A stretch of DNA of 6,025 nucleotides from a virus (taxonomy: Duplodnaviria; Heunggongvirae; Uroviricota; Caudoviricetes), in the IMG/VR virus record IMGVR_UViG_2695420792_000002, one strand, 5' to 3'. Below, one piece after another: positions 1,856 through 6,025 of this stretch. Positions within the stretch are counted from its first letter, which is position 1. Each line of letters opens with the position of its first letter. Position numbers and translations under genes: made by a program. The notes under the pieces are model-generated. The model saw nothing but the letters and a program-made list of their open reading frames with translations. It had not been told where the DNA came from and did no database searches.

Positions 1856-2938
1856 TTAGAACTGGTAAACCATACCTACAGCAACGATATCATCGGTAGC
1901 AACGCCAGATGCTTTCGTGAAATCGCTCTTATCAATCAGGTTGATTTTGTAGTCAACAAAAGTGGACATATTTTTGTTGAAGTAATAGGTTGCACCTACA
2001 TCAACATATTCAACCAGGTCCTGATCACCCCAAACACCCAAGTCTTTTCCTTTAGAATGCAGGTAAGCAACGGATGGACGCAGGCCGAAGTCGAACTGAT
2101 ATTGTGCAACAGCTTCGAAGTTTTGTGCTTTGTTGGCAATATGGTTATTACCAAAAACAGTCATGTTCTGGGTTTCAGAATAGGTGGTGGCCAGATAGAT
2201 GTTGTTCGCATCATATTTCAGACCAGCTGCCCATACTTCAGCATTTTGACCAGAAGCATTCAGACCGTTGTTACCGTAGATAACCTGATTATTAGTGCGA
2301 TCAGATTTAGCATAGGTTGCACCTACACCGAATCCTTCATACTCATAAGTAGTGGAGAAACCGAAACCATCACCATTAGCTTCAGTTACGTCAGTGCGGT
2401 CATTTTTACCCTGATACTGAGCAGCAAAGTTCAGACCATCAACCAGACCAAAGAAGTCGTTGTTACGATAAGTTGCAACACCAGTGGTGCGACCAGTCAT
2501 GAACACATCTGTTTGAGTCCAAGTGTCACCACCGAATTCTGGCAGGACGTCAGTCCACGCACCGATGTCGTATGCTACACCGTAGTTACGGCCGTAATCG
2601 ATGGAGCCGTAGTCACCGAATTTCAGGCCAGCGAAGGCAAGACGGGTTTTATCTTTGGAGGAACCTTGAGATTCAGCGCGGTTGCCTTTGAATTCATATT
2701 CCCACTGACCGAAACCAGTCAGTTGATCGTTGATTTGGGTTTCACCTTTGAAGCCAAGACGGGCATAAGTAGTATCACCATCATCTGCATCATTAGAGGA
2801 GAAGTAGTGCTTAGCATTAACTTTCCCGTACAGATCCAGCTTGTTACTGTCTTTATTATAAATTTCAGCTGCCTGAGCAGACATCGCCATCAGTACTGAT
2901 GCAGCTACAGCAGAAATTGCCACTGTTAATTTTTTCAT
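1856..2938 (-). CDS. nmpC: OmpC/OmpF/PhoE-family general porin (360 aa), NmpC / Lc-type prophage porin, apparently intact
   Basis: Translation begins [23 protein letters not shown] (signal peptide) then [16 protein letters not shown]..., with the C-terminal ...VGMVYQF typical of 16-strand porins. Matches recalled NmpC N-terminal region. No internal stop or IS interruption across the full-length ORF. Confidence 0.9.
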
Positions 2939-3300
2939 CGTGAGCCCTTTTTTTTGAACTATTATTAAAAAATGATGTCACTGCGCGATAAATATTCATC
3001 TAATCAATGTGATTATTTCAAGATGTAAGTTTTAGTTTCTCATTTAATTTGTGAAGTAGATCTCTATTTTTATCTGAACTTTTTCTATCGAAACCTATTT
3101 ATGGCTCTTATTTGAACAAAAATAAACCTATTAGCTAATTTATATTAATGGCTGTTATTTATGGGGGGTCTATAATTCGATGGTTTAATTTAAATTAACT
3201 AAAAATAACGCCGGAAATTATTTATTGGTTATTTGTTGAGGTTTTCTTATGTATTTGTGGTGGTGTTTTGAACACTCGGTAGCATTCTCATAAATATCAT
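2939..3300 (-). promoter_or_regulatory. AT-rich upstream region of the porin gene (promoter and probable regulator-binding sites)
   Basis: Strongly AT-rich, ORF-free sequence immediately 5' of the porin start codon on the minus strand, with many A/T tracts. Boundaries are approximate. Confidence 0.3.
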
Positions 3301-3526
3301 TCAGTGGTTTACGTACGTAAAAAATTGGTTATGCTGTTAAGAGTGGTTACTTCGTCACACAGCTTAAACCCGCCGTCGAGCTGGTTTTTCCATTTTTTGA
3401 GTCTCGATATTAGCTGATAACTCAATACCTGAGTTATTCACTGACTCCGAGTCTGTTACGTTTCTGCTTTTTTGCGATACGTTGTATTCCCTCAATTTAC
3501 ACCCGCTTTGTCTGCGAGGTGGGGTT

Positions 3527-3742
3527 ATGAAATCCATGGATAAGTTAACAACGGGTGTCGCCTATGGCACCTCAGCAGGTAGTGCCGGTTACTGGTTTTT
3601 ACAGCTGCTCGATAAAGTCACGCCCTCACAGTGGGCAGCAATAGGTGTGCTGGGTAGCCTGGTATTTGGCCTGCTGACGTACCTGACAAACCTTTATTTC
3701 AAGATTAAAGAAGATAAGCGCAAGGCTGCGAGAGGTGAATAA
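3527..3742 (+). CDS. essD: Phage-21-type class II holin (pinholin S21 homolog), 71 aa, with dual-start motif
   Basis: GAGGTGGGG then ATG at 3527; translation [71 protein letters not shown] closely resembles S21. Met1 and Met4 give the antiholin/holin dual start. The track start at 3482 is a TTG extension. Confidence 0.9.
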
Positions 3743-4239
3743 TGCCTCCATCATTACGAAAAGCCGTTGCTGCTGCTATTGGTGGCGGAGCAATTGCTAT
3801 AGCATCAGTGTTAATCACTGGCCCAAGTGGTAACGATGGTCTGGAAGGTGTCAGCTACATACCATACAAAGATATTGTTGGTGTATGGACCGTATGTCAC
3901 GGGCATACAGGAAAAGACATCATGCTCGGTAAAACGTATACCAAAGCAGAATGCAAAGCACTCTTGAATAAAGACCTTGCCACTGTCGCCAGACAAATTA
4001 ACCCATACATCGAAGTCGATATACCGGAAACAACGCGCGGCGCTCTTTACTCATTCGTTTACAACGTGGGTGCTGGCAATTTCAGAACATCGACGCTTCT
4101 TCGCAAAATAAACCAGGGCGATATCAAAGGCGCATGTGATCAGTTACGTCGCTGGACATATGCTGGCGGTAAGCAATGGAAAGGTCTCATGACTCGTCGT
4201 GAGATTGAGCGTGAAATCTGTTTGTGGGGTCAGCAATGA
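3742..4239 (+). CDS. rrrD: SAR endolysin (phage-21 R-type lysozyme, T4-lysozyme-like, GH24), 165 aa
   Basis: ATG overlaps the holin stop (TAATG). N-terminal Gly/Ala-rich weakly hydrophobic segment [20 protein letters not shown] (signal-anchor-release domain), followed by the E...D...T catalytic region ([24 protein letters not shown]). Confidence 0.9.
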
Positions 4240-4697
4240 ACAGAGTAACCGCGATTATCTCCGCTCTGGTTATCTGCATCATCGTCTGCCTGTCATGGGC
4301 TGTTAATCATTACCGTGATAACGCCATTACCTATAAAGCCCAGCGCGACAAAAATGCCAAAGAACTGAAGCTGGCGAACGCGGCAATTACTGACATGCAG
4401 ATGCGTCAGCGTGATGTTGCTGCGCTCGATGCAAAATACACGAAGGAGTTAGCTGATGCGAAAGCTGAAAATGATGCTCTGCGTGATGATGTTGCCGCTG
4501 GTCGTCGTCGGTTGCACATCAAAGCAGTCTGTCAGTCAGTGCGTGAAGCCACCACCGCCTCCGGCGTGGATAATGCAGCCTCCCCCCGACTGGCAGACAC
4601 CGCTGAACAGGATTATTTCACCCTCAGAGAGAGGCTGATCACTATGCAAAAACAACTGGAAGGAACCCAGAAGTATATTAATGAGCAGTGCAGATAG
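4236..4697 (+). CDS. rzpD: Rz inner-membrane spanin (i-spanin), 153 aa
   Basis: ATG at 4236 overlaps the endolysin stop (ATGA). N-terminal transmembrane helix ([20 protein letters not shown]) followed by a charged coiled-coil-like periplasmic domain. The track start at 4224 is an upstream extension. Confidence 0.85.
4456..4638 (+). CDS. rzoD: Rz1 outer-membrane lipoprotein spanin (o-spanin), 60 aa, fully embedded in the +1 frame of Rz
   Basis: AGGAG at 4443-4447 then ATG at 4456; lipobox-like LVVVGC with Cys20; proline-rich mature part ([15 protein letters not shown]). Entirely inside Rz in another frame, the classic Rz/Rz1 architecture. Confidence 0.85.
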
Positions 4698-4728
4698 AGC
4701 TGCCCATATCGATGGGCAACTCATGCAA

Positions 4729-5022
4729 TTATTGTGAGCAATACACACGCGCTTCCAGCGGAGTATAAATGCCTAAAGTAATAAAACCGAGCAATCCATT
4801 TACGAATGTTTGCTGGGTTTCTGTTTTAACAACATTTTCTGCGCCGCCACAAATTTTGGCTGCATCAACAGTTTTCTCCTGTCCAATTCCCGAAACGAAG
4901 AAGTGATGGGTGATGGTTTCCTTTGGTGTTACTGCTGTCGGTTTGTTTCCAACAGTAAACGTCTGTTGAGCACATCCTGTAATAAGCATTGCCAGAGCGG
5001 CAGAAAACAACATTTTTTTCAT
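4729..5022 (-). CDS. bor: Bor lipoprotein (serum-resistance / Iss-family outer-membrane lipoprotein), 97 aa
   Basis: Translation from the ATG at 5022: MKKMLFSAALAMLITGCAQQTFTVGNKPTAV... with lipobox LITGC. Matches recalled lambda Bor. The track start at 5070 is an upstream extension. Confidence 0.85.
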   Translation of the reverse strand: MKKMLFSAALAMLITGCAQQTFTVGNKPTAVTPKETITHHFFVSGIGQEKTVDAAKICGGAENVVKTETQQTFVNGLLGFITLGIYTPLEARVYCSQ

Positions 5023-5222
5023 CTTATTATCCTGCATTGTTAAAAACGGCAGAATCCTATGTGACAACAATTAAACGATAGTTAAATGGATTGATGAAAA
5101 TTAAAACTATATAGGTGTACGCTCAGACTATTGGAGGAAGTTGGGGACACTCAGAATCCTGTGGAATGAAATAAACCGGTCTATCCGTCTATTACCCTTT
5201 TAGCTGCGCTGTATCGTCGCCG

Positions 5223-5287
5223 TATTCCCGCATTAACCATGACCGTAGCCCGACGGGGAATTCCTTCTGCGTGAGTGTGCGGGAATA
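5223..5287. repeat. Perfect 10-bp inverted repeat (TATTCCCGCA / TGCGGGAATA) flanking a 45-bp spacer in ORF-free DNA
   Basis: Read directly: 5223-5232 TATTCCCGCA and 5278-5287 TGCGGGAATA are exact reverse complements. The spacer contains a GAATTC palindrome. Confidence 0.5.
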
Positions 5288-5384
5288 ATCAAAAACGATG
5301 CACACCGGGTTTTACTGTGCTGACAGACGCAGGGTTACCCTCATAGTCGCTTTTCCGGTGCGATGGTGGAAGAAACCGGGATGT

Positions 5385-5579
5385 TCATCCATCATCACTT
5401 TGGATTGATGTATATGCTCTCTTTTCTGACGTTAGTCTCCGACGGCAGGCTTCAATGACCCAGGCTGAGAAATTCCCAGACCCTTTTTGCTCAAGAGCGA
5501 TGTTAATTTGTTCAATCATTTGGTTAGGAAAGCGGATGTTGCGGGTTGTTGTTCTGCGGGTTTTGTTCTTCGTTGACAT
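5385..5579 (-). CDS. ylcI: Small basic DUF3950 / YlcI-like protein (64 aa), function unknown
   Basis: Translation MSTKNKTRRTTTRNIRFPNQMIEQINIALEQKGSGNFSAWVIEACRRRLTSEKRAYTSIQSDDG resembles the small conserved protein encoded next to cos in lambda-like phages (my recollection of YlcI). Start codon preceded by AGG. Transcribed divergently from the terminase. Confidence 0.6.
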   Translation of the reverse strand: MSTKNKTRRTTTRNIRFPNQMIEQINIALEQKGSGNFSAWVIEACRRRLTSEKRAYTSIQSDDG

Positions 5580-5743
5580 GAGGTTGCCCCGTATTCAGTG
5601 TCGCTGATTTGTATTGTCTGAAGTTGTTTTTACGTTAAGTTGATGCAGATCAATTAATACGATACCTGCGTCATAATTGATTATTTGACGTGGTTTGATG
5701 GCGTAGATGCACGTTGTGACATATAGATGATAATTATTATCAT

Positions 5744-5778
5744 TTTGCGGGTCCTTTCCGGCGATCCGACAGGTTACG
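5744..5778. other. cos right-end flank including the probable cosQ region
   Basis: TTTGCGGGTCCTTTCCGGCGATCCGACAGGTTACG immediately 5' of cosN matches my recollection of the lambda genome right end. Confidence 0.6.
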
Positions 5779-5790
5779 GGGCGGCGACCT
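5779..5790. other. cosN, the 12-nt cohesive-end sequence GGGCGGCGACCT (terminase nicking site)
   Basis: Exact lambda cohesive-end sequence GGGCGGCGACCT, flanked by lambda-like left-end sequence (CGCGGGTTTTCGCTATTTATGAAAATTTTCCGG). Confidence 0.85.
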
Positions 5791-5942
5791 CGCGGGTTTT
5801 CGCTATTTATGAAAATTTTCCGGTTTAAGGCGTTTCCGTTCTTCTTCGTCGTAACTTAATGTTTTTATTTAAAATACCCCCTGAAAAGAAAGGAAACGAC
5901 AGGTGCTGAAAACGAGCTTTTGGGCCTCTGTCGTTTCCTTTC
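5791..5942. promoter_or_regulatory. cosB: terminase small-subunit binding sites R3, R2 and R1 with an intervening AT-rich IHF-like site
   Basis: CGTTTCC motifs: R3 at about 5831-5848 (CGTTTCCGTTCTTCTTCG); R2 and R1 form a perfect 15-bp inverted repeat GAAAGGAAACGACAG (5888-5902) / CTGTCGTTTCCTTTC (5928-5942); AT-rich TAACTTAATGTTTTTATTTAAAATA between R3 and R2. Confidence 0.75.
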
Positions 5943-5967
5943 TCTGTTTTTGGCCGTGGAATGAACA

Positions 5968-6025
5968 ATGGAAGTCAACAAAAAGCAGCTGGCTGACATT
6001 TTCGGTGCGAGTATCCGTACCATTC
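5968..6025 (+). CDS. nu1: Terminase small subunit Nu1, N-terminal 19 codons only (continues beyond the window)
   Basis: ATG at 5968; translation MEVNKKQLADIFGASIRTI is identical to the lambda gpNu1 N-terminus as I recall it; located just downstream of cosB. Confidence 0.85.
   Translation, partial: MEVNKKQLADIFGASIRTI

Follow-up and report, generated by a model that had tools for sequence, protein, structure and literature searches.

A conserved non-coding module with a putative plus-strand hairpin structure at the lysis/packaging boundary of DLP12-type and other lambdoid phages

Here we describe the interval between bor/iss and a ylcI-like gene in a stretch of viral DNA of 6,025 nucleotides (IMG/VR record IMGVR_UViG_2695420792_000002), which is referred to as the window throughout. 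The window represents the late region of an E. coli prophage of the DLP12 type (lambdoid) and carries, in order, rusA, Q, a porin gene on the minus strand, S/R/Rz, bor/iss (minus), the interval, the ylcI-like gene (minus), cos, and nu1. Strain ML35 and two further strains match positions 4700-6025 at 100% identity, and the window arrangement, scored at 80% or more of the 4700-6025 query, is carried by 951 complete genomes. The PGAP labels in these records are iss, ylcI, and nohD, with nothing between them; the iss label comes from identical E. coli records. Within the interval lies a conserved non-coding module of ~175 nt (5205-5383) comprising a long hairpin and two further hairpins, H1 and H2. 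The locus is organized as follows.

4729..5022, minus strand: lipoprotein gene bor/iss, placed as a moron between Rz and the module (ORF list, PGAP name, and tblastn context)
5056..5088, minus strand: putative bor/iss promoter (alignment with the lambda bor upstream region)
5092..5204, unstranded: bor-upstream spacer of the 434/21/DLP12-B type, unrelated to lambda (pairwise BLAST)
5205..5312, plus strand: conserved 108-nt block with the long imperfect hairpin P1-P4 (alignments and covariance model)
5368..5387, unstranded: junction of H2 with the ylcI stop codon (TCA, 5385-5387), where lambda and K-12 carry ybcV-ybcW (BLAST and alignment)
5385..5579, minus strand: ylcI-like gene with DUF3950 (ORF list and domain match)
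5779-5790: cosN
5959: start of nu1

The ORF list bears out an earlier, sequence-only reading of this DNA in that 5071-5384 contains no ORF of 60 aa or more. The ORFs found there are only 30-37 aa long, at 5192..5305 on the minus strand and at 5298..5408 and 5363..5458 on the plus strand. The true start of bor/iss is at 5022, and a TTG-extended form of its ORF reaches 5070. Upstream of this gene, the minus strand carries, at 5072-5088, the direct repeat cATTTA-actat-cGTTTA, which is PhoP-box-like, and, at 5056-5061, the -10-like CATAGG. Both elements match, position for position, TGTTTA-gggtt-TGTTTA ... CATACG upstream of lambda bor, and the window version deviates in both half-sites from the PhoP-box consensus. 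A sigma-70 consensus scan returned no site at 5056..5088. BorD is a member of the PhoP regulon (PMC5740661). Based on homology to the lambda bor upstream region, it is plausible that part of the bor promoter sits at the left edge of the interval. Pairwise BLAST found no lambda or K-12 counterpart for the adjoining 5077-5201, a spacer common to 434-type and phage 21 records.

Comparison with lambda and K-12 delimits what has been gained or lost here. Using pairwise BLAST and alignment, we determined that 4401-5076 corresponds at 93-94% to the Rz-bor region in both lambda and K-12 DLP12, that 5202-5312 matches lambda 46,865-46,974 and the K-12 borD-ybcV intergenic region at 82-83%, and that 5368-5778 matches lambda 48,092-48,502. 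From these matching blocks it follows that ~1.1 kb with lambdap78/ybcV and lambdap79/ybcW is missing here relative to lambda and K-12 DLP12. The sequence-only reading is correct in placing ybcV and ybcW between borD and ylcI in K-12, where the order is borD, ybcV (minus strand), ybcW (plus strand), ylcI (minus strand), nohD. The BLASTN comparison with DLP12 and lambda that it proposed, run as pairwise BLAST, showed ybcV/ybcW to be absent and the repeat block to be kept in both. The gene-loss junction falls at ~5368-5384, near 5380, within or beside hairpin H2, where GGAAGAA(A)C is shared. This position, rather than one at the inverted repeat described below, is indicated because the ybcV-ybcW cassette of lambda and K-12 sits at the right edge of the module. 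In lambda, a degenerate second H2-like copy adjoins the ylcI-like stop, so that ybcV-ybcW has an H2-like repeat on either side; in the window there is only one H2, and it is joined to the ylcI stop. The ybcV/ybcW-less arrangement is not private to this prophage, since phage 434 and 24 other phage records share it.

The suggestion that the interval is a deletion scar holds for its right end only, at the ybcV-ybcW junction, and fails for the repeat, which lies ~100 nt to the left. A reading of the repeat as purely a by-product of ybcV/ybcW loss could draw on the absence of these genes relative to lambda and K-12 and on the sequence shared at the junction. However, the repeat is kept, with a compensatory change, in lambda and K-12, which retain ybcV/ybcW. 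On this sequence comparison the pure-scar reading is refuted, and we give it practically no credence.

The perfect 10-bp inverted repeat noticed in the sequence-only reading is present exactly as described, with TATTCCCGCA at 5223-5232 and TGCGGGAATA at 5278-5287, 100% complementary across a spacer of 45 nt. It is locally unusual, as only 20 of 2000 dinucleotide shuffles of the 314-nt segment (1%) produced a perfect 10-bp inverted repeat with a gap of 3-100 nt; over the whole 6-kb window, the expected number of such repeats is ~0.7. Inverted repeats of 6 bp are at chance level, with 10 observed and 5.7 expected. The 10-bp repeat forms helix P2 of an imperfect hairpin of ~93 nt (5210-5302). The predicted helices and loops of this hairpin and of the segment downstream are listed here.

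5210..5217, plus strand: P1 5' arm, pairing with 5295-5302 (MFE fold, RNAalifold, and covariation)
5223..5232, plus strand: P2 5' arm, the first repeat arm (exact repeat and covariation)
5244..5258, plus strand: P3 5' arm, 5244-5248, and apical P4, CCC 5249-5251 with GGG 5256-5258 (tentative)
5267..5271, plus strand: P3 3' arm (covariation analysis)
5278..5287, plus strand: P2 3' arm, the second repeat arm (exact repeat and covariation)
5288..5294, plus strand: A-rich 3' internal loop AUCAAAA, nearly invariant (alignments A2, A3, and A5)
5295..5302, plus strand: P1 3' arm (RNAalifold and covariation)
5303..5308, plus strand: CACCGG arm (partner 5355-5360), in no conserved helix (broken pair and H2 competition)
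5315..5334, plus strand: H1-equivalent small hairpin, weak and shifted in the window (alignments)
5355..5379, plus strand: H2, with CCGGU at 5355-5359, a 15-nt loop, and ACCGG at 5375-5379 (64-variant alignment)

Over 61 distinct variants, the proposed P1-P4 pairs are paired in 97.5% of cells, compared with 30-67% when the partners are slid. Five pairs in P1-P4 show double compensatory changes, a number reached by 0 of 500 shuffles, in a control that ignores phylogeny among closely related homologues (mean column identity 91%). This close relationship is also why compensatory events are few, at six pairs including H2. Three of the pairs are in P2, with changes from C-G to G-C (lambda), from C-G to U-A, and from U-A via U·G to C-G. 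For example, the lambda version of the repeat is TATTCCCGGA/TCCGGGAATA where the window has ...GCA/TGC..., a C-G to G-C swap that keeps the pair. In P1, pair 7-98 changes from G-C to A-U, and pair 8-97 occurs as U·G, U-A, and C-G; in P3, pair 41-68 changes once from C-G to U-A. P4 has a fixed stem and a freely varying 4-nt loop, and in one lineage a 9-nt deletion takes out exactly the P4 hairpin with P3 kept. P3 and P4 are tentative only, since single-sequence MFE folds of some common variants prefer another apical pairing. The possibility raised earlier, that the 10-bp repeat belongs to a structured RNA, is thus supported by its conservation and by compensatory changes in lambda, Stx phages, and others, and the proposed search for such changes in the repeat arms across relatives found them at the three P2 pairs. 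The alignments appear to provide the covariation-backed pairing that characterizes a structured cis-regulatory RNA in the generic sense.

Downstream of the long hairpin, H1 has the form ACCGCG-loop-CGCGGGU in most variants, with a hypervariable loop and 84% pairing across variants. H2 spans 25 nt, is carried by all variants, is 98.8% paired, and contains the invariant GGAAGAAAC in its loop. Its central pair, 162-184, is G-C in 31 and U-A in 27 of the 64 variants. The CACCGG at 5303-5308 and the CCGGTG at 5355-5360 are where the sequence-only reading placed them. The pairing of the two that it implied did not withstand the alignment: 30 of 64 variants break its central pair, and H2 competes for the same CCGGU arm. 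The CCGGT arm pairs instead, with covariation, with ACCGG at 5375-5379. A third alternative helix from the MFE fold, between the tail CCGGGUUU and GAAACCGG, is contradicted by the G-to-U/C-to-A covariation that supports H2. Across the module, stretches that are unpaired yet nearly invariant point to a partner with sequence specificity more than to a hairpin that merely confers stability.

The plus strand is the sense of the Q-dependent late transcript. Cells that depart from Watson-Crick pairing are of the G·U type on this strand in 137 cases and of the A·C type in 18, and U·G is the majority state at two pairs. This excess of G·U-type cells favors a structure in the late-transcript sense. The plus-strand fold is also the more stable one in 61 of 64 variants, with a mean MFE of -30.7 versus -25.5 kcal/mol. 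Relative to shuffles, the folding energy is unexceptional, with z-scores of -0.72 and -0.39 on the plus strand and -0.79 and +0.20 on the minus strand. Tolerance of G·T is equally compatible with a single-stranded DNA hairpin of the plus strand.

A cmscan of the whole window against Rfam 15 (E<=1) returned nothing in 5071-5384 and two chance microRNA matches elsewhere. The promoter/terminator scan gave no terminator-like site in 5205-5384 on either strand and no promoter-like site that would explain the element. An intrinsic terminator was rejected: the stem is long and irregular, and no U-tract follows P1 on either strand, the sequence there being CACACCGGG on the plus strand and GCGCAGCUAAAAGGG on the minus strand.

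The element is non-coding. Codon periodicity is absent (variable columns 20/19/21 by phase), variants differ by frame-breaking 1-nt indels and a 9-nt apical deletion, and the sole candidate ATG alternates with GAG across variants. Stop-free frames give arginine- and cysteine-rich translations that are unlike protein and have no consistent start. A Pfam search returned no match, and the 37-aa ORF at 5192..5305 on the minus strand, called a "hypothetical protein" in some phage records, was also without a PHROG match. VT2-Sakai orf48, a plus-strand ORF over the element, matches PHROG 6954 "Rz-like spanin" end to end (E=3.6e-53). These automatic annotations, together with the long stop-free plus-strand frames of some variants, are what speaks for a protein encoded by the 37-aa ORF or by the plus-strand ORF of Stx phages. 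Against the tests above, and with PGAP leaving the region blank in nearly all E. coli genomes, we consider such a protein highly improbable. The PHROG 6954 label over the element is most likely an annotation artefact. A moron in the sense of a promoter-gene-terminator cassette was rejected as well, there being no credible ORF inside the element.

We next consider how widely the module is distributed. The 108-nt block is found at 82-100% identity in 432 of 50,697 phage records. Carriers include lambda, 434, 21, and many Stx1/Stx2 phages (VT2-Sakai, vB_EcoS_P32 of the 933W species, phi24B), as well as a few Shigella and Salmonella phages. The lambda copy of the module is at 46,868-47,032, and a copy is also present in K-12 DLP12. 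In complete E. coli genomes, the 179-nt segment 5205-5383 occurs at 11,833 places in 4,579 of 5,426 genomes (84%), with up to 11 per genome; among the matches listed for these genomes, nearly all copies are unannotated. The module is present at 99% identity or more in 1,294 E. coli records. Covariance model R1 detected one copy each in the window, lambda, K-12, phage 21, and VT2-Sakai, at 104-138 bits. It detected no copy in the searched right-end segments of HK97 and HK022, so the element is not universal among lambdoid phages. A contig scan with a 14-mer anchor listed matches in unrelated taxa, as expected by chance.

The genomic position of the element is constant. Based on tblastn of neighbor proteins at ~140 loci, it always lies between Rz and the packaging genes, and bor is optional. 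In VT2-Sakai and L072-type phages, which lack bor here, the block begins 11-20 nt past the Rz stop, and in VT2-Sakai the end of H2 is ~115 nt before terS. On the right, the neighbor is ylcI directly (the window and 434), ybcV with or without ybcW (lambda and K-12), or a plus-strand TonB-C cassette (phage 21). The flanks on either side of the module are unrelated between lineages. Since the neighbors vary both left and right, the module is a fixed point, with slots for insertion on either side. A single plasmid copy, located outside a phage, was inspected, and its P2 is visibly degraded.

Published RNA data show that the homologous K-12 region is transcribed. In uninduced K-12, direct RNA-seq detects plus-strand RNA in the 800 nt that include the element; a Rho-termination peak at 579,345 separates 218 upstream reads from 34 downstream ones, and with bicyclomycin the two counts are 311 and 113 (Adams et al. 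2021, supplementary file 2). The Rho-dependent peak lies ~170 nt past H2 in K-12. The sequence-only reading had asked whether the interval gives rise to any transcript, and over the homologous K-12 region plus-strand RNA does exist. The K-12 Term-seq tables hold no curated 3' end at 578,500-579,399, a weak test given the low expression there; on this basis the hairpin does not appear to be an efficient terminator in K-12. Gene-level RNA-seq gave 127 RPM for borD in sense and ~1 RPM or less for antisense within borD or ybcV; the p19/rnc dataset consists of gene-level counts only, and the strand column of its Table S1c conflicts with Table S1b. By Hfq RIL-seq, the small RNAs of lambda are PreS/LPR1, LPR2, and 6S only, with LPR2 near 6S in the late operon. 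Lambda 46,860-46,919 had no match in the accessible portion of the lambda RIL-seq supplement. The borD/ybcV papers searched contain nothing on the intergenic region, and the prophage small-RNA literature searched does not describe the element (AgvB/AsxR/EcOnc, the Pas RNAs, and LPR2 lie elsewhere).

The best-supported reading of these alignments is that the roughly 175-nt module represents a conserved structured element of the late transcript at the lysis/packaging boundary. A selected plus-strand structure is likely, and we infer that the module functions as RNA. As a whole, a conserved plus-strand hairpin module acting in cis is the best explanation available, and we hold it with somewhat less than even confidence. 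A function as a cis-acting processing or stability element of the late mRNA is inferred from these features and is offered tentatively. Lambda-like and Stx phages have the module where the lysis cassette ends, at its 3' end, and the simplest arrangement, Rz stop, module, terS, is seen in the latter. In other phages, accessory genes are placed at the exact module edges, with bor/iss on the left and ybcV/ybcW, the TonB-C cassette, or ylcI on the right. The structure would be read on the plus strand in the Q-dependent late mRNA. It may be an entry site for a double-strand-specific, RNase III-type enzyme, or it could act as a barrier to 3' exonucleases that separates the lysis-gene segment from the downstream packaging segment. 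An internal loop of 5 x 7 nt lies between P1 (8 bp) and P2 (10 bp), and P3/P4 follow further up the hairpin, an architecture compatible with an RNase III substrate without being diagnostic of one. A further possibility, which we regard as speculative but worth stating, is that the module is an undescribed functional RNA domain with a specific partner (a nuclease, an RNA-binding protein of phage or host, or an RNA) that reads it via the invariant loops.

The main rival is a neutral or DNA-level patch at a mosaic junction, kept by recombination or recent ancestry, with a hairpin that has no RNA function; we consider this rather unlikely. The module boundaries do coincide with the element edges, recombinant arm combinations occur (e.g., L047 and L030), breakpoints fall inside the element in L029, L137, L128, L296, and L328, lambda has two H2-like repeats around ybcV-ybcW, and the folding z-scores are unremarkable. 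However, neither a neutral patch nor a double-stranded DNA site would be expected to show compensatory double changes at six pairs, or one-sided changes of which nearly all can wobble on one strand but not on the other. The stems are also kept while the loops of P4 and H1 are hypervariable, and the plasmid copy outside a phage has degraded in P2. On the minus strand, the element might terminate or insulate ybcV/ylcI transcripts or regulate the bor/iss promoter from upstream. Such a function would fit the location of the element, which on that strand follows ybcV or ylcI and precedes bor by 115-185 nt, as well as the bor promoter at the left edge of the interval. VT2-Sakai and L072-type phages nevertheless carry the element without bor and without any minus-strand neighbor, and the hairpin has no U-tract behind it when read on the minus strand. 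Reading that strand also turns most variant pairs, and the two pairs that are U·G in the majority, into A·C mismatches, and it makes the fold the less stable one in 61 of 64 variants. We therefore regard a minus-strand function as very unlikely. Direct tests disfavor the minus-strand, coding, and pure-scar readings alike.

The module could also work in trans or by binding a protein, as a small RNA, sponge, or decoy recognized via the invariant loops AAUAAUCAAAAAC and GGAAGAAAC. Such an RNA would either be set free from the late transcript or start at a promoter upstream of bor. Sequence varies little in the unpaired segments, the 3' internal loop has ARN-like triplets, plus-strand RNA is present in the K-12 intergenic region while borD/ybcV antisense is negligible, and other lambdoid moron sites encode small RNAs (PMC4104026). 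Against this, no promoter is conserved, since only 5 nt of the block precede P1 and the flank upstream of it differs by lineage. A terminator hairpin followed by a U-tail is absent as well. The element is also absent among the Hfq-bound lambda small RNAs. Target complementarity in the window is not above chance: among complements of the conserved loops within the 6 kb, the best is a 9-mer at 5677, about chance by estimate. An Hfq-dependent small RNA with its own promoter and terminator was rejected in view of the unconserved upstream flank and the lack of a terminator. The invariant loops hint at a specific partner and so lend some weight to a trans-acting or protein-binding role, which we judge quite unlikely.

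The module is a real and widespread feature that the sources searched do not describe, and any function is putative. Although the lambda late operon has been much studied, this ~175-nt module has no Rfam family and is blank or mislabeled in genome records. In particular, the PHROG 6954 annotation should be corrected as a probable artefact, per the non-coding evidence. Should the module prove to work as RNA, it would give access to the question of how functional stability comes to differ between segments of the 26-kb late mRNA, and it would bear on the balance of lysis and morphogenesis genes, also in Shiga-toxin phages. If it is an RNA domain read by a partner, it would control the balance between lysis- and packaging-gene expression or touch host systems during lytic growth. 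The module also defines a fixed boundary where virulence-linked morons such as bor/iss insert.

Several known systems resemble the module in part. AgvB, AsxR, StxS, the Pas RNAs, and STnc100 are small RNAs at moron sites of lambdoid prophages (PMC4104026; bioRxiv 10.64898/2026.05.13.724894), and like them the module is a non-coding RNA feature, as proposed here, of the Q-dependent late region at moron boundaries. Those RNAs lie directly downstream of Q/pR' and upstream of the lysis genes in EHEC and EPEC, and the anti-sRNAs among them are 51-60 nt long with mapped primary 5' ends (PMC4104026). AgvB, AsxR, and STnc100 are also Rfam families (bioRxiv 10.64898/2026.05.13.724894). In contrast, the element described here lies after Rz and has neither a terminator-like site nor an Rfam match. 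The intrinsic terminators that flank morons likewise place a stem-loop at a moron boundary, but the stem of the element is long and irregular rather than short and GC-rich, with no U-tract and no K-12 Term-seq end. The PHROG 6954 "Rz-like spanin" corresponds to the same DNA in Stx phages, judged here to be non-coding.

The put sites of HK022 are just downstream of the early promoters and confer antitermination. As with put RNA, a multi-hairpin element acting in cis in the nascent phage transcript is proposed here; unlike put, the element is absent from the searched right-end segments of HK022 and HK97, and an antitermination role for it would be pure speculation. RNase III processing hairpins are found in phage polycistronic mRNAs, for example the T7 R1.1-type sites, lambda sib, and the N-leader sites. 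The element shares with these an irregular intergenic hairpin within a long phage transcript, 3' of the last gene of a functional block, and two stacked helices, P1 and P2, with an asymmetric internal loop. It differs in having no sequence similarity to them and in its extra apical helices, two additional hairpins, and invariant loops. By position and shape, the module most resembles the intercistronic processing or stabilizer hairpins of phage mRNAs.

In lambda (L004 2166-2226, corresponding to 48,065-48,125) and in K-12 DLP12 (L005 4708-4768), a degenerate second H2-like sequence, CCTGTTCGGAGGGAAGAACGCGGG, adjoins the stop of the ylcI-like gene, and ybcV-ybcW is therefore flanked by H2-like direct repeats. 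Such repeats are a likely substrate through which the cassette could be gained or lost.

Breakpoints of mosaicism were seen within the element itself in a few phage contigs (L029 10748-10854, L137 4558-4664, L128 1638-1743, and L296 and L328, 5' of H2). Their positions are past approximately block column 70, at the border between the block and H1, or within H1, and the modules carrying them are truncated, with only part of the structure retained. One viral contig, L013, contains two copies of the module (5057-5163 and 6007-6113) spaced by approximately 950 nt. Among the 11,833 places where the module was matched, in 4,579 of 5,426 complete E. coli genomes, 695 are located on plasmids. The iss locus of plasmid pLH13-b-A (NZ_CP100526.1; L291 1036-1604) is a phage fragment, in which an Rz/Rz1 remnant is followed by iss, then by the hairpin block and finally by an IS3 element. 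Several changes in this copy of the block break P2 pairing.

In Stx phages, the element is labelled as a protein (L169 2478-2738, which is VT2-Sakai orf48, and L170 2535-2738) and described as an “Rz-like spanin” of PHROG 6954. Its translation does not resemble a protein, and the frame is not kept across variants. The label probably reflects an artefact of annotation, now propagated through databases.

Published direct RNA-seq of uninduced K-12 shows a plus-strand transcript at approximately 578,545-579,345 of NC_000913.3 (L005 ~3046-3846), which is ended by Rho within antisense-ybcV. Since gene-level data contain almost no antisense RNA inside borD, this transcript may begin within the borD-ybcV intergenic region. 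On the minus strand, a PhoP-box-like direct repeat lies 5' of bor/iss within window 5056-5088, reading cATTTA/cGTTTA versus TGTTTA/TGTTTA in lambda and K-12. Because both half-sites deviate from the lambda/K-12 box, PhoP control of the iss allele in the window may differ from that of borD.

The porin gene of the window (nmpC/lc-type, 360 aa; 1856-2938, minus strand) is intact. The same gene is split by an IS5-family element in both K-12 and ML35, the latter being otherwise identical to the window in its right-hand region.

A long inverted repeat, AGAAAGGAAACGACAG ... CTGTCGTTTCCTTTCT, occupies window 5884-5946, between cosN and the nu1 start. An Rfam model, mir-578, matched this repeat, and we attribute the match to chance. 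We take the repeat to be the counterpart of the inverted gpNu1-binding R sites in lambda cosB rather than an RNA gene.
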